Notes: generated from the letters alone by a model not told the origin. A stretch of 64,000 nucleotides of DNA from an uncultured Candidatus Peribacteria bacterium (GCA_964491515.1 CAZBGQ010000004.1:18326-82325), one strand, 5' to 3'. Positions 14,456-39,479 are shown, numbered from the stretch's first letter. Numbers and translations: made by a program.

Positions 14456-14810
14456 TTGGAAATCAGCGAATAAGAAAATAGCAATTCCAATAGGGTTGGC
14501 CTTGGTTGCATTGCTAGTAGCAACATTATTGAAATTTGATTATATTTTAGTATTGAAAGGGGCGATTGGTATCCCACTCCTTGCTATTTTGCCAGGGTGG
14601 ATATGGATTGGCATTCTTTCCCCCAAAACGACAGGAATTATTGAGAAGTTGGCACTGAGTTGGATGTTATCAATAGTATTGGTTGGTTGGTCAGTTTATG
14701 GATTGCGGTATTTAGTTTTTGAAAAAATAACAAATGTGACTATTATTATGGCGCTTACTTTGGTTGTGGGGTTAGGGTTAGTTTTACAATTTATCAAAAA
14801 AAAGAAATGA
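14442..14810 (+). CDS. Small 4-TM membrane protein, unknown function
   Basis: 122 aa with four hydrophobic segments and a KKKK tail. ATGA overlap with the downstream dehydrogenase gene. Confidence 0.6.
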   Translation: MKKIDWKSANKKIAIPIGLALVALLVATLLKFDYILVLKGAIGIPLLAILPGWIWIGILSPKTTGIIEKLALSWMLSIVLVGWSVYGLRYLVFEKITNVTIIMALTLVVGLGLVLQFIKKKK

Positions 14811-16099
14811 ACAATAAGCAACAAGTGATTTGTGTTGTAGGGCTTGGATATGTAGGAATGCCTTTGGCCGTGGCTTTCGGGCGTACGGAGCATCCGACAT
14901 ATGGGTACGATATTTCTACGGAGAAAGTGAATTCATTGAAAAACGACATAGATCTTAATAATGAAATAACTGAAGAAGAGCTAAAGAGTACAACGGTTAA
15001 TTATAGTGATGAGCCGGAGGTAATTGGACTTGCAGATGTAGTAATAGCGGCCGTCCCAACACCTATCGATAGCGAAAGAAACCCAGATTTAACACCCGTT
15101 GAAAGCGCGTCACGAACAATTGGTAAGCATATGAAAAAAGGCGTGACAGTCGTCTATGAGTCAACCGTTTATCCTGGCCTAACGGAGGAAATTTGTGTTC
15201 CTATCTTAGAAGAAGAGTCTGGGCTTAAGTTCGGGGAGGATTTTGAAATCGGGTATTCACCGGAAAGAATTAATCCTGGAGATAAAGAACACACCTTGGA
15301 ACGAATTAAAAAAATTGTAGCTGGAAGTACTCCAGAAACATTGGAAATGTTAAGTGCGCTTTATGGAGAAGTAGTCCTTGCAGGCATCCACGAAGCTCCA
15401 AGTATCAAGGTAGCAGAAGCAGCAAAGGTCATTGAAAACGTACAACGTGATTTGAATATTGCGTTGGTGAATGAACTGTCACTTATTTTTAAAAAACTAG
15501 GGATCAATACTATTGATGTGCTGAAGGCTGCAGAGACAAAATGGAATTTCCATAGTTATCGTCCAGGGTTGGTAGGTGGACATTGTATTGGCGTGGATCC
15601 TTATTATTTGACCTATAAAGCTCAAAAATCGGGATACGATCCGCAGGTTATATTGGCTGGAAGGAAGATCAACGATAATATGGCAAGTTGGGTGGTGGAC
15701 TATTTAGCAAAGGAACTGGGAAAAATGGACCGTCCGCTTGAATCAGCGAAGATATTGATGTTGGGGGTTACATTTAAGGAGAATGTGGCAGATTTAAGGA
15801 ATTCAAGAGCCAAGGATATTATTAAAATTTTAAAGGAGAGAGGGGCAGAGGTGTTTGGCTACGACCCATTATTAAGTAAGGAATCTATTGAAAGCAATTT
15901 CAGTGTGCCTGTCTTCGAAAACGTAGAGGAGCGTGAAGTATTTGATGGAATGATCTTATTTTCTCCTCATGACGAAATCGTTGATAACGTAGAAGATTTA
16001 ATCAGATGGGGGAAATCCCCTGTAGCTTTTGTTGATGTGAAATCTAAGGTGCGAGATAAATTAGAAAAAAAAGAAGCTATTTTTTATGAAACATTATAA
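14807..16099 (+). CDS. UDP-N-acetylhexosamine 6-dehydrogenase, WbpO/TviB family
   Basis: ICVVGLGYVGMPLAVAFG, the NDIDLNNEITEEEL segment, and the GGHCIGVDPYYL catalytic-cysteine motif. Confidence 0.8.
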   Translation: MNNKQQVICVVGLGYVGMPLAVAFGRTEHPTYGYDISTEKVNSLKNDIDLNNEITEEELKSTTVNYSDEPEVIGLADVVIAAVPTPIDSERNPDLTPVESASRTIGKHMKKGVTVVYESTVYPGLTEEICVPILEEESGLKFGEDFEIGYSPERINPGDKEHTLERIKKIVAGSTPETLEMLSALYGEVVLAGIHEAPSIKVAEAAKVIENVQRDLNIALVNELSLIFKKLGINTIDVLKAAETKWNFHSYRPGLVGGHCIGVDPYYLTYKAQKSGYDPQVILAGRKINDNMASWVVDYLAKELGKMDRPLESAKILMLGVTFKENVADLRNSRAKDIIKILKERGAEVFGYDPLLSKESIESNFSVPVFENVEEREVFDGMILFSPHDEIVDNVEDLIRWGKSPVAFVDVKSKVRDKLEKKEAIFYETL

Positions 16100-18730: not shown

Positions 18731-19507
18731 ATGAAAGTAGTAATACTCTGTGGTGGATTAGGGACGCGACTTAAAGAGGAAACTGAATATCGCCCAAAAC
18801 CAATGGTTCATATCGGACCTTGGCCAATATTGTGGCATATAATGAAGCTTTACGCTCACTTTGGATACAACGAATTTATCCTAGCATTGGGGTATAAGGG
18901 TGATTTTATTAAAGAGTATTTTAATAATTATGAGCTCATGAATAACGATGTAACGCTCGAGCTTGGGAGGCCTGACAATTTGGTTGTCCATCAGAAGCAT
19001 AATGATGTTGGATGGAAAATTACATTGGTGAATACCGGGGAGTCCACGCTTAAGGGTGGACGCTTAAAGCGTGTTGAGAAATATATTGATGGGGATGATT
19101 TCATGGTGACTTATGGCGATAGTGTGGCAAATGTGGATATAGGTAAGCTTGTTAAATTTCACCATGAGCACGGGAAATTGGCGACTGTGACAGCAGTAAC
19201 GCCGGCTTCACGGTTTGGGGAGTTAACGATTAAGGATAATTTAATAGAGAGTTTTGTGGAAAAGCCAAAGGTGGGTTCCGTATTAACTAATGGAGGTTAT
19301 TTTGTGTTTAAGAAGGGAATCCTTAGTCATCTCTCTGAGAAGGAAGATTGCGATTTGGAATATGGAGTTTTGGAGAAAATTGCTGGTGACTCACAGCTAA
19401 TGGCATATAAGCATGATGGTTTTTGGGAGTGTATGGATACATTTCGCGACATGGAGTATCTGAATAAGCTTTGGAATGAAGGTAAGGCTGAGTGGAAAAT
19501 TTGGTAA
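18731..19507 (+). CDS. rfbF: Glucose-1-phosphate cytidylyltransferase
   Basis: MKVVILCGGLGTRLKEETEYRPKPMVHIGPWPILWHIMKLY is near-canonical RfbF/DdhA. Confidence 0.9.
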   Translation: MKVVILCGGLGTRLKEETEYRPKPMVHIGPWPILWHIMKLYAHFGYNEFILALGYKGDFIKEYFNNYELMNNDVTLELGRPDNLVVHQKHNDVGWKITLVNTGESTLKGGRLKRVEKYIDGDDFMVTYGDSVANVDIGKLVKFHHEHGKLATVTAVTPASRFGELTIKDNLIESFVEKPKVGSVLTNGGYFVFKKGILSHLSEKEDCDLEYGVLEKIAGDSQLMAYKHDGFWECMDTFRDMEYLNKLWNEGKAEWKIW

Positions 19508-19522
19508 TGTGACGTATCCTTT

Positions 19523-20596
19523 ATGTTTAATAATATTTATAGTGGAAAGAAAATCCTTATAACCGGGCATACCGGTTTTAAGGGGGGATGGCTTGCATTA
19601 TGGCTCCATAGTTTAGGTGCGGATGTTTTAGGGTATAGCTTGGCGCCGCCGACCACTCCTAATTTATTTACAGTTGCTGGTGTTCAAGAAAAGGTAGATT
19701 CCGTAATTGCTGACGTCAGAGACAAGGAGGCGTTGTTAAAAGCCTTTCAACAGCATAAGCCAGAGATCGTTTTCCATTTGGCCGCACAGGCGCTTGTAAG
19801 GCCTTCATACGCTGATCCAGTGGGAACGTACGAAACAAACATAATGGGCACGGTGAATTTGCTTGAGGCGTGTCGTTTGACTCCTTCTGTACGTGCGGTG
19901 GTTAATGTTACAAGTGATAAATGTTATGAAAATACGGGGAAAGCAGGGGGGTATGTGGAGGATGATAAAATGGGAGGTGGGGATCCTTATAGTGCAAGTA
20001 AGGGATGTTCTGAGCTTGTAATGCAGTCTTATTTAAAGTCTTTTTTTAATCCCGATGATTATTCTGAGCATGGTGTCGCGCTCGCATCGGGAAGGGCTGG
20101 GAATGTTATTGGCGGTGGCGATTGGGCGGTCGATCGCTTGATCCCGGATTGTATCCGGGCTTTTGAGGGGAAGAAAGAAATCATTATTCGTTATCCCAAT
20201 GCAACTCGCCCATGGCAATACGTTCTGGAGCCTCTTTATGGGTACCTGCTGCTTGCTCAGTATCTTTACGAAGGCGGGGCACGTTATACGGGGGGATGGA
20301 ATTTTGGGTCAAACAATGAAAATTCAAAGCCGGTCCATTGGCTTGCTGATAAAATGGTTGAATTGTGGGGTGGAGATTCATCGTGGGCCACGGATGGAGG
20401 GCGACTGCTCGCAGAGGCGAATTCGCTTACACTTAATTGTTCAAAGGCAATCAAGCAGCTTGGATGGGAGCCCAAATATGACCTGGGAAGTACGTTGGAA
20501 AATACAATTGAATGGTACAAAGCCTTTGGAAATAAGCAGGAAATGATTAAGTATACTATTGAACAAATTCATTCCTATGAAAAAAATATTAACTAA
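19523..20596 (+). CDS. rfbG: CDP-glucose 4,6-dehydratase
   Basis: ILITGHTGFKGGWLALWL, the YSASKGCSEL YxxxK motif, and the right length (357 aa). Confidence 0.9.
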   Translation: MFNNIYSGKKILITGHTGFKGGWLALWLHSLGADVLGYSLAPPTTPNLFTVAGVQEKVDSVIADVRDKEALLKAFQQHKPEIVFHLAAQALVRPSYADPVGTYETNIMGTVNLLEACRLTPSVRAVVNVTSDKCYENTGKAGGYVEDDKMGGGDPYSASKGCSELVMQSYLKSFFNPDDYSEHGVALASGRAGNVIGGGDWAVDRLIPDCIRAFEGKKEIIIRYPNATRPWQYVLEPLYGYLLLAQYLYEGGARYTGGWNFGSNNENSKPVHWLADKMVELWGGDSSWATDGGRLLAEANSLTLNCSKAIKQLGWEPKYDLGSTLENTIEWYKAFGNKQEMIKYTIEQIHSYEKNIN

Positions 20597-20605
20597 ATTT
20601 TTACT

Positions 20606-21817
20606 ATGAACTGTCGTGCTTGTACCACTGAACTTATTCCATTTTTCTCTTTGGGGGAAATGCCACTCGTTAATAATTTCTTACGAGAAGAAGAGATCGC
20701 TAATGAGGAAAAATATAACTTAGCGGTCGGATTCTGTCCTAAGTGTTATTTAGTGCAACTTTTGGAGACAGTATCTCCTTCGGAATTATTTGTAGATTAT
20801 ATTTATCGTTCATCAACTTCTTCATCTTTCCTTGCGCATTGTAAGGAATTAGCTGCTTATTTTGCAGAGAGGTTTGATCTTGGATCGGATAGCCTAGTAC
20901 TTGAAATTGCTAGTAACGATGGATCTTTTTTGGAACAAATAAAGGCGTTAGATATTCAAATAGTGGGGGTTGACCCTGCTAAAAATATTGCCGAAATAGC
21001 GAATAAAAAGGGGATAAGAACCATGCCGGAGTTTTTTAGTTATTCATTTGCTGAAAAATTAAAAAGTCAGGAGAGTATTCAAGCCGATCTAATTTATGGG
21101 GCAAATGTTCTTGCACATGTGCCCGAAATTATTGATTTTGTAAAAGGGGTTAAAACTATCTTAAAGAATGGCGGAACCGCTATTTTTGAGTTTCCGTACA
21201 TTGCGGGATTAATGGAGAACAAATTTGATACGATATACGATGAGCATGTTTTTTACTATTCTCTTATTGCTTTGCAGAATCTTTTCCGAGAAGCGGGGTT
21301 GGAAATTTACGACGTAGAGCTGACTCCTATGCAGGGAGGCTCTTTGATGATATTTGCTGCTCACCCCGGTCAATTCTCCGTGACTGAGAATATGAAAGAG
21401 CTTAAAGAAAAAGAGATAAGCGAAGGATTCGATCGGATTGAGACTTATCGAGAAATTGAAAGGAATGTTGGTGAATTAAAAAAAGAACTTCTCAGTTTGT
21501 TGAAAAAAATAAAAGATGAGGGCAAAAAAATTGCGGCCTACAGCGCCTCTGCAAAGGGCAATGTCTTACTGAATTATTTTGGGATTGGATCTGATATCCT
21601 TGATTTCATAGTGGATAAAGCTGAATTTAAACAGGGACTCTATACGCCGGGAACTCATTTAATGGTTTATCCGCCGGGGAAAATACAAGAAGAAAAACCG
21701 GATTACCTTTTGGTTTTGTGCTGGAATATTTCGGGAGAAATTGTGAAACAATTAAGCGATTACCATGGTGCTGGCGGGAAATTTATTATTCCGATTCCTA
21801 ATATAAGAGTTTTATGA
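20606..21817 (+). CDS. NDP-hexose C-methyltransferase family protein (Zn-ribbon + class I SAM MTase + C-terminal domain)
   Basis: N-terminal CRAC...CPKC zinc ribbon, LEIASNDG SAM motif, and a ~400-aa three-domain layout like TylCIII-type sugar C-methyltransferases. Confidence 0.7.
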   Translation: MNCRACTTELIPFFSLGEMPLVNNFLREEEIANEEKYNLAVGFCPKCYLVQLLETVSPSELFVDYIYRSSTSSSFLAHCKELAAYFAERFDLGSDSLVLEIASNDGSFLEQIKALDIQIVGVDPAKNIAEIANKKGIRTMPEFFSYSFAEKLKSQESIQADLIYGANVLAHVPEIIDFVKGVKTILKNGGTAIFEFPYIAGLMENKFDTIYDEHVFYYSLIALQNLFREAGLEIYDVELTPMQGGSLMIFAAHPGQFSVTENMKELKEKEISEGFDRIETYREIERNVGELKKELLSLLKKIKDEGKKIAAYSASAKGNVLLNYFGIGSDILDFIVDKAEFKQGLYTPGTHLMVYPPGKIQEEKPDYLLVLCWNISGEIVKQLSDYHGAGGKFIIPIPNIRVL

Positions 21818-22356
21818 TTTTTCAAGAGACTAAATTAAAGGGTGTGTATGTTATTGAGCCTGAGCCATTGGTGGATGGGAGAGGTTATTTCAGTCGTGTC
21901 TTTTGTGAAAATGAATTCAGGGAAAGAGGGATGGAATTTAGTATCAAGCAAGTTAACCGTTCGGTTACAGAAAAAAAGGGTGTAATTAGGGGCATGCATC
22001 TGCAGTCTAAGCCGGTAGAGGAGGCAAAAGTGATTCAATGCACAAAGGGAGCTATCTATGATGTTGCCGTCGATCTAAGGGCAGAGTCGCCCACGTTTAA
22101 GCAGTGGGTAGCTGTTGAGCTTACCGCGGAAAATAAAAAAATGCTTTTCATCCCTGAGGGATTAGCGCATGGGTGCCAAACTCTTGTGGATGAGTGTGAA
22201 GTACTTTATTTCATGTCAGAGTTTTATGAGCCAAAATATTCAAAAGGCGTTTTATGGAATGATCCGCTTTTTGAGATAAATTGGCCAATAGATGATCCAA
22301 CCCTTTCGGATAAGGATAAAATTTGGCCATCATTTAAACCCAATGCAAATGATTAG
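21814..22356 (+). CDS. NDP-4-keto-6-deoxyhexose 3,5- (or 3-/5-) epimerase, RmlC cupin family
   Basis: GVYVIEPEPLVDGRGYFSRVF...IRGMHLQ...KVIQCTKGAIYDVAVDLR...LFIPEGLAHG. Confidence 0.8.
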   Translation: MIFQETKLKGVYVIEPEPLVDGRGYFSRVFCENEFRERGMEFSIKQVNRSVTEKKGVIRGMHLQSKPVEEAKVIQCTKGAIYDVAVDLRAESPTFKQWVAVELTAENKKMLFIPEGLAHGCQTLVDECEVLYFMSEFYEPKYSKGVLWNDPLFEINWPIDDPTLSDKDKIWPSFKPNAND

Positions 22357-23449
22357 GATTCCTATTACGGGACCATCGATTACTAACTTAGAAGTTGAGT
22401 GGATCACAAAAGCAGCGCAGGATGGGTGGGATGAAAATGCCACAAAATATGTAAACCTATTTGAGGGAGCATTTGCGAAATATGTTGGGAGGAAATATGC
22501 ATTGGCGACTTCTTCTTGTACGGGGGCCTTGCATTTGGCTTATTTAGGCTTGGGCTTGAAGCCTGAGGATGAGGTGATTGCTCCCAATGCTACCTGGATT
22601 GCAAGTGTCGAGCCGCTTTACTGGATAGGGGCAAAGGTGGTTTATGCTGATATTGATCCTAAGACTTGGTGCATTGATCCAGCGGACATTGAGAGAAAAA
22701 TCACTCCTAAGACAAAGGCGATTTTGGTTGTTAATTTGTACGGGCATGTAGCGGAAATGGATGAGATTTTGAGAATTGCGAAAAAGCATAATTTGAAAAT
22801 CATAGAGGATGCTGCTGAGTCGGTGGGGTCGGAATATAAGGGTAAAATGGCAGGGAGTTTTGGTGATGCTTCCTGTTTCAGTTTTCATGGATCAAAAACA
22901 CTCACCACGGGAGAAGGAGGCATGATTCTAACGGATGACGAAGAAGTAATCAGAAAAGCTCGTTATTACAATGATCATTGTAAGGACACGGGGAAATTTT
23001 TTTGGAATTTGGAAATTGGATATAAATACAAGATGTCCAATTTTCAAGCCGCCTGCGGGATAGCACAGCTTTCTCGTGTCGAAGAGTTAATTGCTAAGAA
23101 GAGGGAAATATTTAAATGGTATAAAGAACGGCTTGAAGGTGTTGAAGGTGTACAATTGAACACTGAGGCTCCGGAGACAAAAAACACCTTTTGGATGGTG
23201 ACCGTTGTGTTTGATAAGGGAAATGATTTTGATAAGTCGAAATTAATAAACAGTTTTGATGAATTCGGGATTCAGACACGTCCTTTTTTCTATCCGGTTT
23301 CAAGTTTGCCGGCAATAAATATTCCAGCGGAGACACCTGTTGCATTCGATATTTCGCAACGCGCTATCAATCTTCCCTGCTCTCAAAATATTACCGAGAA
23401 TCAAGTAGATTATATTTGTAAAAGCTTAGTTAAAATCTTAGAAACATGA
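22343..23449 (+). CDS. DegT/DnrJ/EryC1-family PLP-dependent sugar aminotransferase
   Basis: ATSSCTGALHLA, and FSFHGSKTLTTGEGGM with the catalytic Lys retained. This argues for a true aminotransferase rather than a dehydratase. Start taken at the ATG at 22343 (or 22349), overlapping the upstream stop. Confidence 0.85.
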   Translation: MQMIRIPITGPSITNLEVEWITKAAQDGWDENATKYVNLFEGAFAKYVGRKYALATSSCTGALHLAYLGLGLKPEDEVIAPNATWIASVEPLYWIGAKVVYADIDPKTWCIDPADIERKITPKTKAILVVNLYGHVAEMDEILRIAKKHNLKIIEDAAESVGSEYKGKMAGSFGDASCFSFHGSKTLTTGEGGMILTDDEEVIRKARYYNDHCKDTGKFFWNLEIGYKYKMSNFQAACGIAQLSRVEELIAKKREIFKWYKERLEGVEGVQLNTEAPETKNTFWMVTVVFDKGNDFDKSKLINSFDEFGIQTRPFFYPVSSLPAINIPAETPVAFDISQRAINLPCSQNITENQVDYICKSLVKILET

Positions 23450-24480
23450 AGAAAAATATTCTTATCGCCGGTATAGGGGGGGCTTCCTTGGGTACAGAGA
23501 TTTTCAAGAATCTCACAATGGCTGGATATGAAAATATTTATGGAGCGGACATCTCTCCGTACGCTTTTGGATTGTATCAATCGGGTTTTTTGGGGACCTA
23601 CGTCATTAATAGAGAAAAATATATCCAAGATCTTCTTGAGATTTGTGAAAAGATGAAAATTGAAATCATTATCCCCGGGGGAGAAGGCCCTCAAAGTTTA
23701 TTAAACGAAAACAGGAAATTATTTGAAGAAAATAATATCTTATTGGCAATGAATTCTCCGGAGGTAATTAAGCTTTGTACTGACAAAATAAAGACTTTTG
23801 ATTATTTGAGTGAGAGAGGTGTTTCGGTCCCAGTGACAAAAATAATAGATACGCTTGATGACATCGAGGGTTTTTCTTACCCGTGTATTATTAAACCCAC
23901 TAAAGATAGTGGAGGAAGTGCTTTTGTGAGTCTGGCGAATGACAAAGAAGATGCGCATATTTTCTCAGAGCAAATAATGAAAAGCGGGAGAACTCCCCTA
24001 TTTCAAGAGTATATTCCCTTAGCGGAAGGAGAATATTCATTCAGTGTGTTATCTGCTCCAGATGGAGAGATTTTTGGTGGAATTGGCATTAAAAAGAATT
24101 TTGACACAAAGCTAACATATACATTTAAGTCTGACCAAGGCATCATCTCTGGAGGTTATAGTCAGGGCTTGATTAGTGATTTTCCTGAAATATTTAGTCA
24201 AGTTTGCGAAATCTCAAAAGTTCTAAAAAGCCGTGGTCCTCTAAATATAGAAGGCAGAGTTGTAAACGGTAAGTTTTTGCCGTTCGAAGTTAACCCACGA
24301 TTTAGCGCATCGACTTATCTTTGGGCTAAGGCAGGGTTTAATGATGTAGATAATTTCATCAGATTAATGGACGACACGTCATTTGATAAAAAACCTTTGA
24401 TCACGGAAGGGTTTTGCTTGAGGTCCTTTAGTGAAATATTTATCTCTAAGGATCAGATTAAGGGGGCGCGTAATATTTAA
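23446..24480 (+). CDS. ATP-grasp ligase (amide-bond forming), substrate unknown
   Basis: Pre-ATP-grasp N-domain, then DKIKTFDYLSERGVSVP...YPCIIKPTKDSGGSAFV...FQEYI...LNIEGRV...FEVNPRFS. ATGA overlap with the aminotransferase gene. Confidence 0.7.
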   Translation: MKKNILIAGIGGASLGTEIFKNLTMAGYENIYGADISPYAFGLYQSGFLGTYVINREKYIQDLLEICEKMKIEIIIPGGEGPQSLLNENRKLFEENNILLAMNSPEVIKLCTDKIKTFDYLSERGVSVPVTKIIDTLDDIEGFSYPCIIKPTKDSGGSAFVSLANDKEDAHIFSEQIMKSGRTPLFQEYIPLAEGEYSFSVLSAPDGEIFGGIGIKKNFDTKLTYTFKSDQGIISGGYSQGLISDFPEIFSQVCEISKVLKSRGPLNIEGRVVNGKFLPFEVNPRFSASTYLWAKAGFNDVDNFIRLMDDTSFDKKPLITEGFCLRSFSEIFISKDQIKGARNI

Positions 24481-24497
24481 AATAATAGTATAAACTT

Positions 24498-25751
24498 ATG
24501 TCACATAGTAAAAGTCATAAAATTTGGGACGAACAAGGCGGATATATTCTCCCTGCAACTAAGTTTATTGAGCCAGTACTTCAGAGAGGAGAGGGTTCTT
24601 ATGTGTGGGATGTTGATGGGAATAAATATCTTGATTTAAATGGTGGGCAATTTTGTTTGTGTTTTGGGCATGCCTATCCAGCACTTACTGAGGCAGTTAT
24701 CAAGCAAATGGGAAATATTATCCATACAAATACCAATACCATCTCGAGTATTGTTTTTGACGCACTTCAGGAACTTATTGAAATTAATAACGAGGTATTT
24801 AAGGCGGGGATTTTACTATCAACTGGAGCTGAAGCGGTTGAGTTCGCGTTACGCTTTTCTAAGTCAATTAAGAAAAGTAACAAGATGATTTATTTGAATG
24901 AGGGCTACCACGGGTCGTCTCTTGGGGCTCAGAGCGTTTCTTCTTATGGGAAATGGGCTTTCCCCACGGTCGATGAAACATTCGGTGTTTCTGTCCCAAG
25001 AACAACGAGCGAGATTGGTCCTTGTGTAGAAAAAATAGAACAAATTTTCAGAGAAAATCCTAAGGAAATTGCTGCTCTAATAATGGAGCCGATTTTGGGG
25101 GCGGGCGGAATGATTTTCCCTTCTGCGGATTTCTTGAAAAAAGTTAGAGAGCTCTGCGATAAGTACAAGGCGATTTTAATTTTCGATGAATGTCAGACAG
25201 GCTTTGGTAGAACGGGGAGTTGGTTTTGTTATCAAAAGTACAATGTTTCCCCAGATATTCTTGTCTTTGCTAAGGCGGGGGGGGCAGGCATGCCTGTCTC
25301 GGGAGTATTATTTGTTGAAAATCTTGCCGAAGAGATGAGGAGTGGAAATCTCACTCATTTTGCTTCACATCAGAACGATCCTTTGTCGGCAGCTATTACC
25401 CTATTTGTTATTGAGGAAATTAAGAAGAAAAATATACTGGAGAAAGTTGGAAATTCCGGGGAAATTTTCTTAGATAAGATAACTGAAATTTCCACTCAAA
25501 GTGATGTGATAGTTAATCCTCGGGGTGTAGGTTTAATGATAGCTTTCGATATAAATGAAGACCTTTTTGATCGTGAAAAAAATCCAGGCCATGAATTGAT
25601 GAACAAATTACTCTCTCGGGGGATAATTATTCAATGTATTAATCGAGGAAGAACTTTTAGGATAATACCAAATTTTTTAATTTCCACTGAGGAAATTGAT
25701 TTTTTCATTGAGAAACTAAACGAATCTCTTAACGAATTTTTAAATGAATAA
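24498..25751 (+). CDS. Class III (omega) aminotransferase
   Basis: LDLNGGQFCLCFGHAYP, DECQTGFGRTGSWF, and FAKAGGAGMPVSG (Schiff-base Lys). Confidence 0.85.
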   Translation: MSHSKSHKIWDEQGGYILPATKFIEPVLQRGEGSYVWDVDGNKYLDLNGGQFCLCFGHAYPALTEAVIKQMGNIIHTNTNTISSIVFDALQELIEINNEVFKAGILLSTGAEAVEFALRFSKSIKKSNKMIYLNEGYHGSSLGAQSVSSYGKWAFPTVDETFGVSVPRTTSEIGPCVEKIEQIFRENPKEIAALIMEPILGAGGMIFPSADFLKKVRELCDKYKAILIFDECQTGFGRTGSWFCYQKYNVSPDILVFAKAGGAGMPVSGVLFVENLAEEMRSGNLTHFASHQNDPLSAAITLFVIEEIKKKNILEKVGNSGEIFLDKITEISTQSDVIVNPRGVGLMIAFDINEDLFDREKNPGHELMNKLLSRGIIIQCINRGRTFRIIPNFLISTEEIDFFIEKLNESLNEFLNE

Positions 25752-26901
25752 TTTTGTTTTTCACAACCCCACTAGAATTGTTTTTGGGAAAGGAACTATT
25801 GCTAGACTTTCTGAATTTATTCCTCAAGGAGCCAGGGTTTTATTGTTGTCTGGTAAAGGGTCAATGCATAAAAATGGTGTATATGAGCAAGTTATCTCGG
25901 CAATTGGGGATAAAATTGTGGTCGAATATGAGGGGATTTTACCTAATCCCACTCACGAACAATGTAGTAGCGTACAAAAAAAGATAGAGGGGGTTGGAGT
26001 GAATTTCATTCTGGCTGTGGGAGGCGGATCCGTAATTGATGCAGCAAAATATATTGCAGTCGGCTCTCAGTTGCCCCCTTCTGAGTCCTGTTGGGACTTT
26101 ATTGAGAAGAGGGTACCGATTAGTAAGGCTTTGCCAGTTGGAGTAATTTTAACAGCACCGGCTTCTGGCTCTGAGATGAATTCTAATGCTGTTATATTGA
26201 ATGTGGAGAAAAAGTCAAAACGCTCACTGAAGAGCGAAAAAGTATTTCCGTCATTTTCAATTTTAGATCCAGAAGTAACAAAAACACTCTCTCCCAGACA
26301 AATTAGAAATGGTATTATTGATTCTTATTCTCATGTGATTGAACAATATTTGACCTTCCCGTCAGATTCTCGAATTCAAGATAGGTTTTCGGAGAGTATT
26401 TTGTCGACCTTGCTTGAAATAGGACCACTTCTCATTGCAAATCCTTATGATTATGATTTGATGGCAAATTTTATGTGGGCATCTACGTGCGCTTTAAACG
26501 GATTTATTTGTTGCGGGGTTCCACAAGATTGGAGTACTCATATGATTGGGCACGAACTCACTGCTGAATATGGGCTTGTTCACGCAGAATCAATTGGGAT
26601 TGTTTTGCCCGGGGTAATGAATTACATGAAGCAGGAAAAAAGGGAAAAGCTTATTCAATACGGAAGAAGAGTTTTTGGATTGGGTGAAATGACTGATGAC
26701 GAAATTGTCCAGGAAGCTATTGATAAGACTGAAGAGTTTTTTGTGTCACTTGGTCAATCTGTCCGGTTTTCCGATTTTGGACTGACTGAAGAAGTTGCTG
26801 ATAATATTTCAAAGAAGATTGGGAGTTACCCGGTAAAAATTGGAGAGAGGAAAAATATAGGGGAGAAAGAGGTACGGGAAATTTTGCTAATGAGAGTTTA
26901 G
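25744..26901 (+). CDS. Iron-containing (group III) alcohol dehydrogenase, YqhD/BdhA-like
   Basis: FHNPTRIVFGKG...AVGGGSVIDAAKYIA...STHMIGHELTAEYGLVHAES. Confidence 0.85.
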   Translation: MNNFVFHNPTRIVFGKGTIARLSEFIPQGARVLLLSGKGSMHKNGVYEQVISAIGDKIVVEYEGILPNPTHEQCSSVQKKIEGVGVNFILAVGGGSVIDAAKYIAVGSQLPPSESCWDFIEKRVPISKALPVGVILTAPASGSEMNSNAVILNVEKKSKRSLKSEKVFPSFSILDPEVTKTLSPRQIRNGIIDSYSHVIEQYLTFPSDSRIQDRFSESILSTLLEIGPLLIANPYDYDLMANFMWASTCALNGFICCGVPQDWSTHMIGHELTAEYGLVHAESIGIVLPGVMNYMKQEKREKLIQYGRRVFGLGEMTDDEIVQEAIDKTEEFFVSLGQSVRFSDFGLTEEVADNISKKIGSYPVKIGERKNIGEKEVREILLMRV

Positions 26902-26996
26902 GGATATTCATTCCTACGAAGAATCATTAACATTGATATTAGGGTAAGTTTAAGGCATTATTATATTAAAAATAATTATCTATAAATAAGTGCCTT

Positions 26997-27734
26997 ATGG
27001 ATCCAATCGAACAGTTCAAATCACAAGTTCAGGAAAATATTTCCCTGCAAGGTAAGGATGAGGGTTTAAGTAATTTGGGCATGCAATTTATGACAAATTC
27101 CATGGCTAATAATTACTCTTACAACTTTACTTGGATGGGGCGGCCGATCATACAATTCCCTCAAGATCTGGTGGCTATGCAAGAAATCATATGGGAGGTG
27201 AAGCCTGATCTTATCATTGAGATGGGGATCGCACATGGTGGATCACTCATATTTTATGCCTCCATGTTGGAACTTTTGGGAGAAGACGGTCGTGTAGTAG
27301 CGGTTGATATTGATATTCGCGAGCATAATCGGGTTGAAATTGAAAAGCACCCCATGGCTAAGCGAATTACCATGATAGAAGGATCTGCCATTGATGAACA
27401 AATCGCAGAAAAGGTTCGCGGATTTGTTAAAGAAGGCATGAAGGTGCTTGTCGTACTCGATTCTTTTCACACGCACGATCATGTATTAAAAGAGTTAGAG
27501 CTTTATTCTCCACTTGTTACAAAAGATAGTTATTTGGTCGTATTTGACACGGTAGTGGAAGACCTACCAGAAGATTCTTATCCGGATCGTCCCTGGGGGA
27601 AAGGAAATAATCCGAAAACAGCCGCGTGGGAATTTCTCAAGCACAACGATCGATTCGTGATTGATGAAAAAATTCAAAATAAGCTGGTCATGACGGTGGC
27701 CCCAGATGGGTATCTGAAATGCATTAAAGATTAA
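26997..27734 (+). CDS. CmcI (cephalosporin hydroxylase)-family SAM-dependent methyltransferase
   Basis: YNFTWMGRPIIQFPQDLVAMQEIIWEVKPDLIIEMGIAHGGSLIFYA is characteristic of the CmcI fold found in sugar O-methylation loci. Confidence 0.75.
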   Translation: MDPIEQFKSQVQENISLQGKDEGLSNLGMQFMTNSMANNYSYNFTWMGRPIIQFPQDLVAMQEIIWEVKPDLIIEMGIAHGGSLIFYASMLELLGEDGRVVAVDIDIREHNRVEIEKHPMAKRITMIEGSAIDEQIAEKVRGFVKEGMKVLVVLDSFHTHDHVLKELELYSPLVTKDSYLVVFDTVVEDLPEDSYPDRPWGKGNNPKTAAWEFLKHNDRFVIDEKIQNKLVMTVAPDGYLKCIKD

Positions 27735-29884: not shown

Positions 29885-30553
29885 ATGATTAAGATACTTG
29901 CCCATCGTGGCTATTGGAAGGAGGAATCAGAGCAGAACACGCTTAAGTCCTTTGAGGATGCATTGGACCGGGGAGTCGGGCTAGAAACCGATTTCAGGGA
30001 CTATAACGGGCGCTTGGTGATTTCCCATGACATGCCCACTGCCAGCTCACCCTTAGCTGCTGATATATTTGAGGCACTACAAGTACATCCTAATTTTTTA
30101 AAAGTCACTTACGCGATTAATATAAAATCGGATGGGACTCAATCACTCGTTAAACAGTTCATTGATCAATTCAACTTACATGATAATAGTTTTGTTTTTG
30201 ATATGTCTGGCCCCTCTCATTTAGGGTTTACCAAAGTGATCCCTTCCAAGAATATTGGGACTCGAATCAGTGACATTGAGTATCCCCCGCTGCTTCTCGA
30301 TAAGAGTCAATGGATATGGGTGGATCAGTTTGAGGATTTCATTTTTGAACCGGAAGAACTCAGCGCATTTCAGGAACAAGGGAAAATATTAGCCTTTGTT
30401 TCTTCGGAGCTTCATAAGCGTTTACACGCATCCCTATGGGATTTCATAGAAGAACACTTTGCAACAAGTTTAATCTATTTATGCACTGACCTTGTGGATG
30501 AAGCAAAGAGCCGCTTTAATAGTGGTAACAATAATCCAATTAAATGTGATTAA
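29885..30553 (+). CDS. Glycerophosphodiester phosphodiesterase (GDPD)-like protein
   Basis: ILAHRGYW...NTLKSFEDALDRGVGLETDFRD...LVISHD matches the HRG / E.D / HD signature of the GDPD and PI-PLC-like fold. Confidence 0.6.
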   Translation: MIKILAHRGYWKEESEQNTLKSFEDALDRGVGLETDFRDYNGRLVISHDMPTASSPLAADIFEALQVHPNFLKVTYAINIKSDGTQSLVKQFIDQFNLHDNSFVFDMSGPSHLGFTKVIPSKNIGTRISDIEYPPLLLDKSQWIWVDQFEDFIFEPEELSAFQEQGKILAFVSSELHKRLHASLWDFIEEHFATSLIYLCTDLVDEAKSRFNSGNNNPIKCD

Positions 30554-31160
30554 AGCAGTTCTTTTCGACCTTGATGGAGTACTCGTGGATGCCACTGAAT
30601 GGCATTACGAGGCGCTCAACAAGGCGCTGGGTTTATTTGGTTACACGATAGACAGGCAGAGACATCTTGGGTTTTATAATGGATTACCAACTCGCGTGAA
30701 GTTGAGTCATCTAACGGAAGAGTTCGAGATGCCAGAGTCATTGCATGATTTTATATATGATATGAAACAACAGTATACGATTGATTTCATTTATAAATTG
30801 TGTCGTCCAGATTTCCAGAAGCAGCTCATGTTCAAGCACCTTAAGAAAAAGGGATTTAAGGTTGGCGTATGTTCAAACTCAATCAGTGAAACCTTGGAGA
30901 TGATGCTAAGGAAAAGCGATTTATTTAATGATTGTGATGTGGTAATTTCTAACCAGGATGTTAAGAAAAGTAAACCTGATCCGGAAATGTATTTGAAGGG
31001 GATGGAGGCGCTGGGTGTCTCTCCGGAAGAAACGATCATTGTGGAAGATTCTCCACATGGAATCGAGGCGGCAGAGGCAAGTGGCGGCCACGTATGTGTG
31101 GTAAAGGGTGTCCAAGACGTTCACCTTGGTTTGATTGAAGGCTATATATCTAAATTGTAA
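30546..31160 (+). CDS. HAD-superfamily phosphatase / phosphomutase-like hydrolase
   Basis: AVLFDLDGVLVD (DxDG motif I), CSNS (motif II), and K...EDSPHGIEAA (motifs III/IV). Start placed at the GTG at 30546 (8-nt overlap). An ATG at 30492 is an alternative. Confidence 0.75.
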   Translation: MIKAVLFDLDGVLVDATEWHYEALNKALGLFGYTIDRQRHLGFYNGLPTRVKLSHLTEEFEMPESLHDFIYDMKQQYTIDFIYKLCRPDFQKQLMFKHLKKKGFKVGVCSNSISETLEMMLRKSDLFNDCDVVISNQDVKKSKPDPEMYLKGMEALGVSPEETIIVEDSPHGIEAAEASGGHVCVVKGVQDVHLGLIEGYISKL

Positions 31161-31177
31161 ATTTTAACCCTAATAGC

Positions 31178-31915
31178 ATGCTGAATATTGTTATTCCAAT
31201 GGCGGGGAAAGGCACTCGTTTTGCAGAAAAAGGCTACACGTTCCCTAAGCCATTGATTGAAGTAAATGGGAAGCCAATGATTCAAGTGGTAATTGAGAAT
31301 CTGAGACCTAATACAGAGCACAGTTTTACTTTTATTTGCCAAAAAGAGCATTACGATAAGTATTCACTCCATGAACTACTTAATTTAGTGGCTCCCAATT
31401 GTAATATTGTGAAGTTGGAGAAATTTACAGAGGGGGCGGCCTGTACAATGCTTCTTGCCAAAGAATATATGAATAATGATGATGAGCTTTTGATCGCAAA
31501 TTCCGATCAATTTGTGGAGATGAAGATTGATGAATTCCTGAAAGACGCACGAGATGCGAATGCAGATGGCTCAATCTTGACGTTTCATGCCACTCATCCA
31601 AAATGGTCATTCGCAAAAGTAAATGAGAATGGGCGAGTGATTGAGGTCGCAGAAAAAAAACCCATAAGTAACAATGCTACTGTTGGGATTTATTATTATA
31701 AAAAGGGACGCGATTTCGTTCAAGGAGCAGAAGATATGATTAGAAAGGATATCCGCATGAATAATGAGTTTTATGTTTGTCCTGTATACAATGAGATGTT
31801 ACTAAAGGATCGTGATATTAAAATCTTTGAGATAAGCCCCGATGAAATGCATGGCATGGGAACTCCTGAGGATTTAGTAGAGTTCGAAAAAACAGAAGTA
31901 TTTAAGCGAATCTAA
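31178..31915 (+). CDS. Sugar- or alcohol-phosphate nucleotidyltransferase
   Basis: IVIPMAGKGTRF...PKPLIEVNGKPMI N-terminal signature of the NTP-transferase fold. 245 aa. Confidence 0.7.
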   Translation: MLNIVIPMAGKGTRFAEKGYTFPKPLIEVNGKPMIQVVIENLRPNTEHSFTFICQKEHYDKYSLHELLNLVAPNCNIVKLEKFTEGAACTMLLAKEYMNNDDELLIANSDQFVEMKIDEFLKDARDANADGSILTFHATHPKWSFAKVNENGRVIEVAEKKPISNNATVGIYYYKKGRDFVQGAEDMIRKDIRMNNEFYVCPVYNEMLLKDRDIKIFEISPDEMHGMGTPEDLVEFEKTEVFKRI

Positions 31916-36780: not shown

Positions 36781-39479
36781 TATAGGTTGGGATTGGTTTC
36801 AACCATTTCAGCAAACACGTCATGTGAGGCGTTGCGATTAGGAGGGAGGAGTACGTCATTCAAATAAACAGTAGATCCTTCATGTACCACCATCTGATCT
36901 GTTGAAATAGTTTTATCCGTTGTGAGAGAGAGTGACGAAGCTCCAAATTCAGATTTTTTTGTATAAGCCGCCAAGTCAAAATAAGTGTTAGCGAGATTTA
37001 CGTCAGAAGCGGTAAGAGATGAAAGATCTTTACTGGTCAGGCCGATAAATGCATCAACAATAGTAGCGCCCGTAAGCGTGACGGTGCTTCCTTCTCCGGC
37101 GCTAACGCCTTTATCTCCAGTTCCTCTTACTAAGAGGTCATTGATCTCTATAACCGTTCCACTGACATCAATACTGTCGTTCCCAATATCTAAAAAGGTT
37201 ATGTCTTCGATGGTACCTTTTGAGAAATCCCCGTCAAAGGCATCTGAAAAAGTTCGAGCTAGGGTCACAGATTTTAGCGCAAATTCAGATTCGACAATAT
37301 TTAAGCCATCTTCTCCGTGCATATCTTGGATAGTTACATTGTCCATATTTACGTTGCTTCGAAAAAATGTAACGCCTCCTGTTAAATTATACGTATCATT
37401 AACTTGTTGTGAGCCACCTGAGAACTGCACATGTTCTAGGGTAGAAGGTGAGTCACCATTTAATACAATGAAAACACCCCAGGGCTCTTCTGGGTTGAGT
37501 GCCTCAATTATTATGGGAGAAGATTCAGTGCCTATAAACTCGAGTGGGGCATAGGAATAGATAGAAACAGAGGGGGCGAGCCGAAGGCGAGCGCCAGGTT
37601 CTGCTTTGAGTGTGTAGCCCGAGGGAATAATTAAGTCATCATTCAAATCCCAGCTCCCAGAGGAGATAGTTACAGTTTTAGAACGTGTATCCTTTATTAT
37701 GAATGGAAAGGATTCTATGTTGGCATTAGACTCCAAGACACGATTTTTTGGGAATGAGGGGGTTAGGGGTGTCCCAGCTACAGTCTCTTGGAAATCCGTT
37801 CCCGAAATACTAAAGTGAACCTCAACATTATGAGGGGTGTCTGTGGACGCTATGTCTAGGCAAATTGATTGATAGTTTGGTGGGGCCAGGTAAAGCGTAG
37901 GCGAAAGCTGGAACTCGTCAAAATAATTAGTGGTTCCACATTGTTGAAGTTCTCTCATTGGAAATAATTTCTCATCGACTTCAACGGAATGAATAGTAAG
38001 CGCAAGGGGAACAAAGTTACCCAGCTGAATTTCAAGGTGATCTAACCCTTCTTCAAGAGATCGAGCCTCGAAACGTGCGTGCAGAAATTGGGGAGGATTG
38101 AATAGTGATCGGATACTATATGCATTAGAGTCAATAGTGTGTCGAATATCTTTGATATTTGTGAAAGGGAATTCTCTCCATAAAAATCCCTGTAAGTGTC
38201 TAAGCTGAGGCTCATAGTGAGACCATAAAGTTTCAACATAATTTTCTTGGCTGACACGCCATAGTTCACTCTGGTAAAGAGGGGAGAATCTTTCATCTTG
38301 CAGGGCGTAGTAAATCAGCCCACGAAAATCAACGATCCCAAGGAGGACTCCTGTTGAACGCTGAACAGCATAATTATCAAAGCTAATAGGCTCAAAATGA
38401 GAAGTAATGGGATTGTAGTAAAAGCGCTCATTATGCCAAAAGTTTCCATGTTCCGCCCCAAATAGTGTTTGAAGTGAAAAATAACGTGCGTACTGTTCAC
38501 AATCAAAAACATCACAAAAGCTCATATTTTCTTGGTCGAACTCTTCTAATAGTGCATAGGCTGATTGTAGCCATTGTGCCTTTTGGGGATCTTCTTGTAT
38601 GTCGTTGAGCTCAAAGGGTTCAAGAGTGGCTGGATTGTGGAGTATGTCATCATGCCCAAAGAGAAGGGTGCTTGCAACAGTTTCTTTCTCGAGGACATTC
38701 ATGTGTGTGGCTCGATCATCCCAGAGAAAGTCTTCATTGTATTTAAAGATTATTGAATCTCGTCGTCCCATACTTTCGACAAGCTCTTTTGTGAAGAATT
38801 CAGAGGTGGCCATTACTCCGATTGATTTCCCATTGAGAATCGCATCAATAAATTCATAGCGTGGCGCAAGTATATTTTCATCTCGTAGTGCTTTGAATAG
38901 AAGCCATTCCCCAAGAAAGTTACGAGTTTTGGGGCTTTGCATTGAGAAGGTTGAAAGACCATTCCATGATTTTGAGTTGCGTATTTTTACGCGAAGAGAG
39001 GGTTTGTCTAAATCTAAGTGGTCGAGCCAGTCCCCCTTTAATCTAATTTTGGTTTTATACTCCCCTCCTTTAGAGGAGCTAATGGTAGCTTTTACATAAT
39101 CATCACTTGAGGAGATTAGAATCCCGACTTGAAGCGCCTCTTGTGCTTTCGCTTCTACTTTTTGCCAATTTTCAAAAGGAACATCTATGTAAATTGTTTC
39201 AAGCTCTTCATTGAAAAGAGGATGTATATAGGATGAAGCATAATGAATGGGGAGAAGTGCGGAATTTTGAAATTGACGAACAAAACGATCTACAAGATAA
39301 GGAAGCGCGTAGCCATACGTCGAATATACAAGGTAGCCAAAGGTTGAGAGAAGAACGAAAAAGAGGCTCAACGCTACTAATATTAGGCGCTTAAATAACC
39401 GACCACGATGACACTGTTTTAAAACAGAAAGAGCTCGGGACCACCAAGTAAAAGTAGATTCGGGGGGGGTAAGTCTCAC
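36780..39479 (-). CDS. CotH kinase-family protein with N-terminal membrane anchor and C-terminal parallel beta-helix-like repeats
   Basis: GTG start 2 nt after the upstream stop. TM anchor LILVALSLFFVLLSTFGYLVY. CotH-like core KIRLKGDWLDHL..KPSLRVKIRNS..FLGEWLLFKALRDENILAPRYEFIDAILNGKSIGVMATSEFF...HGNFWHNERFYYNP. C-terminal repeats NVTIQDMHGEDGLNIV, GNDSIDVSGTVIEINDLLV and GDKGVSAGEGSTVTLTG. Confidence 0.8.
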   Translation of the reverse strand: MRLTPPESTFTWWSRALSVLKQCHRGRLFKRLILVALSLFFVLLSTFGYLVYSTYGYALPYLVDRFVRQFQNSALLPIHYASSYIHPLFNEELETIYIDVPFENWQKVEAKAQEALQVGILISSSDDYVKATISSSKGGEYKTKIRLKGDWLDHLDLDKPSLRVKIRNSKSWNGLSTFSMQSPKTRNFLGEWLLFKALRDENILAPRYEFIDAILNGKSIGVMATSEFFTKELVESMGRRDSIIFKYNEDFLWDDRATHMNVLEKETVASTLLFGHDDILHNPATLEPFELNDIQEDPQKAQWLQSAYALLEEFDQENMSFCDVFDCEQYARYFSLQTLFGAEHGNFWHNERFYYNPITSHFEPISFDNYAVQRSTGVLLGIVDFRGLIYYALQDERFSPLYQSELWRVSQENYVETLWSHYEPQLRHLQGFLWREFPFTNIKDIRHTIDSNAYSIRSLFNPPQFLHARFEARSLEEGLDHLEIQLGNFVPLALTIHSVEVDEKLFPMRELQQCGTTNYFDEFQLSPTLYLAPPNYQSICLDIASTDTPHNVEVHFSISGTDFQETVAGTPLTPSFPKNRVLESNANIESFPFIIKDTRSKTVTISSGSWDLNDDLIIPSGYTLKAEPGARLRLAPSVSIYSYAPLEFIGTESSPIIIEALNPEEPWGVFIVLNGDSPSTLEHVQFSGGSQQVNDTYNLTGGVTFFRSNVNMDNVTIQDMHGEDGLNIVESEFALKSVTLARTFSDAFDGDFSKGTIEDITFLDIGNDSIDVSGTVIEINDLLVRGTGDKGVSAGEGSTVTLTGATIVDAFIGLTSKDLSSLTASDVNLANTYFDLAAYTKKSEFGASSLSLTTDKTISTDQMVVHEGSTVYLNDVLLPPNRNASHDVFAEMVETNPNL

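Follow-up and report, generated by a model that had tools for sequence, protein, structure and literature searches.

In Vibrio cholerae O1, the 4-amino group of a 4-amino-4,6-dideoxyhexose receives an omega-hydroxy acyl unit from a dedicated set of genes. This tetronate set includes an iron-type alcohol dehydrogenase, and its route runs through an acyl carrier protein, an AMP-forming ligase, and an acyltransferase. The genes are VC0248-VC0252, and the product is perosamine acylated with 2,4-dihydroxybutanoate (PMC3441752). In Neisseria meningitidis, PglB2 (an ATP-grasp enzyme fused to a phosphoglycosyltransferase) makes a glyceramido-acetamido-trideoxyhexose, and its ATP-grasp N-acylation of the 4-amino sugar with glycerate is genetically established (PMC11130364, citing Chamot-Rooke 2007). 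N-(4-hydroxybutanoyl)-Qui3N occurs in the O-antigen of Idiomarina abyssalis, as it is cited in PMC8707391 (reference 6). In Campylobacter jejuni HS:2, glucuronate is amidated with serinol or ethanolamine by a pathway that involves Cj1438 (PMC11800379, PMC11800397). Here, we compare these systems with three adjacent genes in a 64,000-nucleotide stretch of DNA (the window, whose positions are used throughout) from an uncultured Candidatus Peribacteria bacterium (GCA_964491515.1 CAZBGQ010000004.1:18326-82325). The genes encode an ATP-grasp ligase, a class-III fold pyridoxal 5'-phosphate (PLP) enzyme, and a YqhD-like reductase of the iron-containing alcohol dehydrogenase (Fe-ADH) family. We propose that the trio is the acyl side-chain module of a CDP-linked sugar pathway, with a 4-N-(hydroxyacyl) sugar as its product, and we give this proposal an even chance of being right.

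Each of the described systems resembles the window only in part. The V. cholerae tetronate set has neither an ATP-grasp enzyme nor a class-III PLP enzyme. PglB2, which we liken to the window's ligase by function and not by sequence, also uses an ATP-grasp domain to join a small hydroxy acid to the 4-amino group of a DegT-made 6-deoxy amino sugar. However, it acts on a UDP-sugar and has a fused transferase domain, and no PLP enzyme or reductase is described with it. In C. jejuni HS:2, the amide step also belongs to a surface polysaccharide, and PLP enzymes also prepare the small partner (Cj1438 with Cj1435-1437), but there the carboxylate comes from the sugar and the amine from the small partner, whereas the sugar of the window is expected to carry the amine. 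We found no description of the gene trio in the literature searched; the component families are known, and so, as a type of system, is the N-acyl tailoring of amino sugars.

The nearest comparison is with a cassette that surrounds relatives of the window's ligase. We collected 80 loci from species-representative genomes and 80 from metagenomes (160 in total), together with an alignment of the relatives, which are 34-76% identical to the window's ligase. The canonical form of this CDP-sugar cassette has the same core genes as the window in near-identical order (40-75% identical), the same ATP-grasp family beside a DegT-family sugar aminotransferase, and a CmcI-type O-methyltransferase at its end. 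It differs in the slot after the ligase. In 130 of the 160 loci, this slot encodes a fusion protein (~410 amino acids) of a protein tyrosine phosphatase (PTP)-like domain and an extended short-chain dehydrogenase/reductase (SDR), which forms the C-terminal part (for example L044:11017-12273, L046:11014-12273, and L002:11011-12228, with ~110 other loci). The N-terminal domain (~125 amino acids) has a CX5R loop in 113 of 113 fusions, which reads CD[YHF]G[IMVL]SR in most of them, and its phosphatase match in Pfam is weak (DSPc, E about 0.001-0.008). In the loci examined, the fusion is followed by an S-adenosylmethionine (SAM)-dependent methyltransferase (~260 amino acids) and then by CmcI. As a side observation, the CX5R partner suggests for the canonical ligase that its acid is attached in phosphorylated form and dephosphorylated afterwards.

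In contrast, the window has the class-III enzyme and the Fe-ADH in this slot, with no PTP-like/SDR fusion and no second SAM-dependent methyltransferase. Neither a class-III enzyme nor an Fe-ADH occupies the slot in any of the 80 genome loci. Two of the metagenome loci (L082 and L083) do match the window: they have DegT, the ligase, the class-III enzyme, the Fe-ADH, and CmcI in the window's order and with 70-79% identity. So, the synteny of the trio, on which the earlier note on this DNA had staked the link between the three genes, is found in related loci. All three genes also seem to be present on about ten more contigs, as the top matches of the three proteins fall on contigs of equal size (37416, 39300, 19434, 15783, 24772, 11669, 29797, 341796, 10462, and 5913 bases), and contigs of 6077, 10899, and 5030 bases have two of the three. 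Identities on the matched contigs go down to 54-62%, and one of the contigs belongs to a metagenome-assembled genome (MAG) of Hydrogenedentales. Past these contigs, the match lists of the class-III enzyme and the Fe-ADH fall abruptly to 51%. A match to a 1827-base contig (ligase P0114 with class-III protein P0143) was set aside, as its ligase has the canonical signature described below.

Several canonical loci have a DegT and a C-methyltransferase that are 66-70% identical to those of the window, but their ligases are only 50-54% identical. Because the sugar core is conserved while the ligase is divergent and the slot is swapped, the ligase and its two partners have been exchanged as a set. 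Gene order and sequence relationships thus support the view that the ATP-grasp enzyme, the class-III enzyme, and the Fe-ADH act as one functional unit. The window's version of the cassette is as follows:

18731-19507, + strand: glucose-1-phosphate cytidylyltransferase, the start of the cassette (TIGR02623, 330 bits, cut-off 300)
19523-20596, + strand: CDP-glucose 4,6-dehydratase (TIGR02622, 478 bits, cut-off 278)
20606-21817, + strand: sugar C-methyltransferase with Zn-ribbon, SAM, and C-terminal domains (PF08421, PF13489, PF08484)
21814-22356, + strand: RmlC-like epimerase (PF00908, 214 bits; TIGR01221, 183 bits)
22292-23449, + strand: DegT-family sugar aminotransferase, a predicted 4-aminotransferase (PF01041, 389 bits)
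23446-24480, + strand: ATP-grasp ligase of the variant clade (K217/E269/W293), predicted to form an N-acyl amide on the 4-amino group of the sugar (NF009402)
24498-25751, + strand: PLP enzyme of the class-III fold whose active-site motifs resemble those of dialkylglycine decarboxylase; its predicted role is to convert an amino (acid) terminus to an aldehyde (PF00202)
25744-26901, + strand: YqhD-like group-III (Fe/Zn) NADP(H) aldehyde reductase of a dedicated subclade (PF00465, PF25137, PDB 1oj7)
26997-27734, + strand: CmcI-type O-methyltransferase, a core member of the cassette, predicted to O-methylate the sugar (PF04989, 314 bits)

The seven core genes (cytidylyltransferase, 4,6-dehydratase, C-methyltransferase, RmlC-like, DegT, ATP-grasp, and CmcI) are contiguous over 18731-27734. 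The earlier note described the trio as three co-directional genes with two overlaps, and this is what we find: open reading frames of 344, 417, and 385 amino acids on the same strand, with an ATGA in which the ATP-grasp start codon (23446-23448) runs over the DegT stop codon TGA (23447-23449; a 4-nucleotide overlap), and with the Fe-ADH start codon at 25744 ahead of the stop codon TAA of the PLP-enzyme gene (25749-25751; an 8-nucleotide overlap). A spacer of 17 nucleotides separates the ATP-grasp gene from the class-III gene. The earlier note's assignments to the ATP-grasp, aminotransferase, and Fe-ADH families are borne out by profile matches, as is its mention of a Ugd gene (9241-10581) and a second, WbpO-like UDP-sugar dehydrogenase gene (14807-16099) elsewhere in the window.

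Two side observations concern genes of the core. The listed DegT open reading frame overlaps the end of the RmlC-like gene by 65 nucleotides (22292-22356), its Pfam match begins at residue 30, and its orthologue in L083 is 15 residues shorter. Because of the overlap, the true DegT start is probably some codons downstream of the listed one. The RmlC-like epimerase (21814-22356) is only 48% identical to the versions in L082 and L083, while its neighbors are 63-79% identical, and it is nearer (55-61%) to the epimerases of some canonical loci. Therefore, the stereochemistry of the sugar may differ between loci that otherwise match. Downstream of the CmcI gene are two glycosyltransferase genes, and the window as a whole is a surface-glycan region with an S-layer homology (SLH)-domain protein, a Wzx-like flippase, more glycosyltransferases, and the two UDP-sugar dehydrogenases. 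A HAD phosphatase and a nucleotidyltransferase are separate genes in the window (29885-31915 region) and one fused gene in L083 (18642-20024); the 222-amino-acid protein that precedes them (29885-30553) had no match in Pfam or NCBIfam. The genome is 1.43 Mb and 98% complete. DNA of the window occurs in sequencing runs labelled as seawater metagenome, several of which are possibly the source sample.

The ligase is predicted to be an ATP-dependent carboxylate-amine ligase. It matches PF02655 (ATP-grasp_3) and PF21360 (PylC-like_N), both above the cut-off, and NCBIfam NF009402 (PRK12767.1-1, 'carbamoyl phosphate synthase-like protein') with 268.4 bits against a cut-off of 218. Its AlphaFold2 (AF2) model (pLDDT 91) has a three-domain ATP-grasp fold and matches pyruvate and biotin carboxylase, PurT, PurK, carbamoyl-phosphate synthetase (CPS), and PylC with a probability of 1.00; PurD is also among the closest solved folds. 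The nucleotide- and metal-binding residues of ATP-grasp enzymes (Lys, Glu-x-Asn-x-Arg) are present: K150, Q187, E281, N283, and R285 are kept in at least 97% of 126 aligned family members and are invariant in 34.

Within the family, the ligases from this gene context (n = 14) form a single clade that is nested among the others (SH-aLRT of 100 in a tree of 136 ligases). Three positions mark it: 13 ligases have K217/E269/W293, and these are exactly the ones that were matched to a class-III partner, while 218 others have R/Q/R. Beyond the contigs that are shared with the class-III enzyme and the Fe-ADH, the signature turns to R/Q/R. We considered E269 as a binder of a substrate ammonium group and dropped the idea, as its spacing to the E-x-N motif probably aligns this position with a metal-ligand position of CPS.

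The neighborhood of the family points to a 4-amino sugar as the target of the ligase. A DegT gene is near the ligase in 73 of the 80 genome loci and 51 of the 80 metagenome loci (124 of 160), a cytidylyltransferase in 53 and 24, respectively, and CmcI (44-67% identical) in 52 and 39, usually ~2 kb past the end of the ATP-grasp gene; the C-methyltransferase is near in 55 of the 80 genome loci. In most loci of sufficient length, the ligase is accompanied by the cytidylyltransferase, dehydratase, C-methyltransferase, RmlC-like, and CmcI genes. The cassette is spread over Chloroflexota, Acidobacteriota, Pseudomonadota, Cyanobacteriota, Verrucomicrobiota, Planctomycetota, Actinomycetota, methanogens, and one thaumarchaeon. 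Of the two targets that the earlier note had offered, the 4-amino sugar of the preceding module fits these counts. The other was the uronic acids made by Ugd and the WbpO-like enzyme. In this reading, the PLP enzyme and the reductase would convert a diamine or keto precursor to an amino alcohol, which the ATP-grasp enzyme would couple to the uronic acid as an amide, as in C. jejuni HS:2. There is something to be said for this, given that precedent and the two UDP-sugar dehydrogenase genes 8-14 kb upstream. Also, a class-III transaminase and YqhD convert putrescine to 4-aminobutanol in engineered strains. However, only 5 of the 160 loci have Ugd or a WbpO-like gene within 10 kb, and neither L082 nor L083 does, so that, as compared by gene context and not by sequence, the window's ligase family does not track uronic-acid synthesis as the Cj1438-type system does. 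An amino-alcohol product would require a carboxylate on the sugar. Furthermore, the start of the ligase gene overlaps the DegT stop, the family goes with the 4-amino sugar cassette in many phyla, and amidation of a uronic acid would leave the 4-amino group without an acylating enzyme. We consider this explanation very improbable.

A related question is which sugar the shared cassette makes. Four of the loci are from Mycobacterium (L046, L053, L055, and L061), and one of the species is M. attenuatum, a member of the M. kansasii complex. There, a large opposite-strand gene close to the cassette (2096 amino acids) is probably a polyketide synthase. In kansosamine, which is a 4-amino-4,6-dideoxy-3-C-methyl-2-O-methyl hexose, the amide is 2-methoxypropanoyl. 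N-acylkansosamine is a sugar unique to M. kansasii, and the table of the lipooligosaccharide (LOS) cluster of this species lists a cytidylyltransferase, an epimerase/dehydratase, a rhamnose epimerase, and a methyltransferase consecutively (PMC4403928). Given this gene list and the presence of the cassette in the LOS region of species of the M. kansasii complex, the shared cassette probably follows a kansosamine-type route, with the amide made by the ATP-grasp enzyme.

The target sugar seems to vary within the ATP-grasp family. The outgroup ligases (34-39% identical; L072, L078, L080, L081, L077, and L079, from Arcobacter, Methanoregula, Methanoperedens, and Solirubrobacterales) form a basal branch, and their genes adjoin DegT and UDP-sugar dehydrogenase or epimerase genes, not the CDP-sugar cassette, which is why we think so. 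In the flagellin glycosylation island of Acidovorax, a 'carbamoylphosphate synthase' gene is found beside a sugar transaminase and a methyltransferase (PMC4622738).

It is also conceivable that the ligase does something other than N-acylate the sugar amine (for instance, extend an existing acyl or amino-acid side chain) or that a keto group on the sugar ring is what the PLP enzyme acts upon, which would give a diamino sugar. The closest solved folds of the ligase (PurT, PurD, PylC, and CPS) do cover many chemistries. However, among the genes at 18.7-31.9 kb we found no other N-acyltransferase, and a side chain that is to be extended would need an enzyme for its first acyl group. As to the ring, one DegT gene is already present, and to our knowledge the nucleotide-sugar ring transaminases known so far are DegT-type and not class III. 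Both versions together seem quite unlikely to us.

The second protein of the trio is a class-III enzyme by profile (PF00202, Aminotran_3, 276 bits, cut-off 30.5), and it has the equivalents of the Schiff-base lysine (K268), the PLP aspartate (D239), the glutamine Q242, and the arginine that binds the alpha-carboxylate (R398 of GabT). It lacks the distal-carboxylate arginine of GabT (R141, here Ser or Leu) and the Glu211 gate (here Ala), and it has Gln at GabT Ile50 and Cys at GabT Val241. Where ordinary members of the family have T(Y/F)(A/G)GNP, it has SSHQNDP, and dialkylglycine decarboxylase (DGD) has TTHVSDP. In a phmmer alignment to DGD (PDB 1dka) and in MAFFT columns, it matches Q52, K272, and R406 of DGD, the small residues at 215 and 245 (S215 and A245 in DGD), and the (S/T)H..DP metal site. 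Overall identity to DGD is 26-27%, and the alkyl pocket differs, with Tyr at Trp138 and Ser or Leu at Met141. The best Foldseek match of the AF2 model (pLDDT 90) is also DGD (TM 0.90). The PDB also includes the GabT mutants I50Q, E211S, and V241A, which were reportedly made to mimic DGD.

By these residues, the enzyme has a predicted active site of the DGD type and not of the GABA or ornithine transaminase type, and such a site is compatible with the loss of CO2 alongside the amino group. Of the earlier note's description of the enzyme as a class-III omega-aminotransferase, the family stands, but the generic omega-aminotransferase does not, as the motifs are of the DGD type. The DGD of Burkholderia cepacia (PDB 1dka, 1d7r, 1z3z) shares its fold and active-site residues with the window's enzyme, but it is catabolic and acts on free dialkyl amino acids.

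The third protein matches the Fe-ADH families PF00465 and PF25137 and YqhD itself (PDB 1oj7, 356 bits). It is 46% identical to YqhD of E. coli and retains the equivalents of D194, H198, H267, and H281 and the GGGS motif, but it falls below the cut-off of the YqhD equivalog (NF011717, 406 bits against 645). It belongs to a subclade with five fixed differences from generic YqhD-like proteins; the members are 62-82% identical and are on the same contigs as the ligase and the PLP enzyme, after which identity drops to 51%.

Could the PLP enzyme and the reductase simply belong to general metabolism (GABA, ornithine, polyamines, or aldehyde detoxification) and sit beside sugar genes, with only the ATP-grasp enzyme related to the glycan? 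Both families are mostly metabolic, and the best NCBIfam names are acetylornithine and GABA transaminases and YqhD. However, neither protein reaches an equivalog cut-off, and both are in discrete subclades on contigs that have the variant ligase, including that of the Hydrogenedentales MAG. The genome has its argC-argD-argB genes on another contig, and its ArgD is only 25% identical to the window's PLP enzyme. ArgD and GabT identities for the PLP enzyme were rejected, given this separate argD operon and the missing distal-carboxylate arginine. Thus, the mapping to ornithine or GABA pathways that the earlier note had raised against itself is not what we see: the two enzymes are not those of central metabolism, and all three proteins of the trio are in dedicated subclades. 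The overlaps of 8 nucleotides between the second and third genes and of 4 nucleotides between DegT and the ligase also speak against a chance neighborhood. We found neither the ligase nor a close relative of the class-III enzyme in 60 relatives or in 400 genomes sampled from the phylum. We regard general metabolism as largely refuted already by the synteny, and as hardly credible.

In our proposal, a cell-surface glycan would receive a 4-amino-4,6-dideoxy-3-C-methyl hexose from this pathway, and the hexose would probably be O-methylated. The ATP-grasp enzyme would convert a small carboxylic acid to an acyl phosphate and then form an amide on the 4-amino group of the sugar. PurT, a structural neighbor of the ligase, makes an acyl phosphate from formate and passes it to an amino-ribotide. 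The DGD-like PLP enzyme would then remove the amino group of the acyl unit, possibly with CO2, to leave an aldehyde, and the YqhD-like reductase would use NADPH to reduce the aldehyde to a primary alcohol. The simplest candidate for the acyl unit goes from glycyl via glyoxylyl to glycolyl. By decarboxylative transamination, beta-aspartyl could become 3-hydroxypropanoyl and gamma-glutamyl could become 4-hydroxybutanoyl; alternatively, beta-alanyl or 4-aminobutanoyl would give the same hydroxyacyl products. We did not find genes for a GadB-type decarboxylase or for PanD in the genome, which is 98% complete, so free GABA or beta-alanine has no obvious supply. The lack of a second methyltransferase in the slot suggests that the new hydroxyl stays free.

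As to the order of the steps, we lean slightly towards a route that begins by ligating an amino-bearing acid and then tailors it on the nucleotide sugar, as against one that forms a free hydroxy acid first. There are three reasons for this, each of them weak. First, the canonical partners include an extended SDR, and such proteins usually bind nucleotide sugars, which suggests that the sister system tailors its side chain on the sugar. Second, the PLP enzyme has no site for a distal carboxylate. Third, two arginines that never vary in the phosphatase-paired clade have been lost from the variant ligase. A more specific form of the proposal is that the PLP enzyme is a DGD-type decarboxylating transaminase, recruited into glycan synthesis, that acts on L-glutamate or L-aspartate joined to the CDP-4-amino sugar via the side-chain carboxylate; that it removes CO2 and the amino group in a single step to leave an aldehyde; and that the reductase then gives the 4-hydroxybutanoyl or 3-hydroxypropanoyl amide. 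This form we hold only tentatively, as it is rather less likely to be true than not by a wide measure.

The two tailoring enzymes could also run in the opposite direction. The ligase would attach a hydroxy acid (for example glycerate, the acid of PglB2, or 3-hydroxypropionate), the Fe-ADH would oxidize its primary alcohol, and the class-III enzyme would aminate the aldehyde, to give an acyl group that ends in an amine and thus a positively charged glycan. Going from alcohol to aldehyde to amine is the logic of the 6'-amination of aminoglycosides, amine transaminases are among the closest folds of the PLP enzyme, and the evidence from synteny fits this direction equally well. However, the reductase is YqhD-like, with a glycine-rich site of the NADP(H) type, and YqhD-like enzymes function as aldehyde reductases. 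Ready-made amino acids could be ligated directly, and the DGD-type motifs point to the removal of an amino group rather than to its addition. So, we think that this direction is unlikely.

Several points weigh against the proposed hydroxyacyl module. DGD-like motifs are no proof of decarboxylation, and amine:pyruvate transaminases are nearly as close in fold to the PLP enzyme. YqhD-type enzymes are promiscuous, and we infer the direction of the reaction in vivo. The amide target of the ligase family comes from gene neighborhood. The link to N-acylkansosamine comes from gene lists, and we found no published gene assignment for its synthesis in the literature searched. Since position 269 probably aligns with a metal-ligand position of ATP-grasp enzymes, the change from Gln to Glu may say nothing about the acid. 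Finally, the co-occurrence on about ten contigs is read from their equal sizes, and the gene order is that of L082 and L083.

Two of the three genes contain runs of G:

23476-23482, + strand: G7 homopolymer in the ATP-grasp gene, at codons 11-13
25277-25284, + strand: G8 homopolymer in the PLP-enzyme gene, directly after the codon of the Schiff-base lysine

By analogy with wbeL, a tetronate gene of V. cholerae O1 that is phase-variable via an A8 homopolymer (PMC3441752), these tracts could allow slipped-strand switching of the sugar side chain. The L082 and L083 orthologues encode the same stretch of the PLP enzyme (FAKAGGAG and FAKAVGAG) with mixed codons. The window has further G homopolymers at 39462-39469 and 52982-52988, and the genome is 40% G+C.

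On bacterial surfaces, the N-acyl groups of rare amino sugars serve as main antigenic determinants and phage-receptor features, and the biosynthesis of most of them is not known. If the G8 and G7 tracts do slip, then the side chain of this Peribacteria glycan could be switched on or off. More broadly, the locus shows a widespread CDP-sugar pathway to be modular, with a constant core and an exchangeable set of ligase and two tailoring enzymes, and the R/Q/R and K/E/W ligases offer a direct comparison for the acid specificity of the ATP-grasp family. If the decarboxylating form of our proposal is true, then the PLP enzyme would be the first DGD-like enzyme that acts on an amino acid bound to a nucleotide sugar, and together with the reductase it would provide a new two-enzyme route from an amino acid to a hydroxyacyl decoration. 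Whichever form holds, the locus gives a large clade of DGD-like class-III enzymes its first biosynthetic context.

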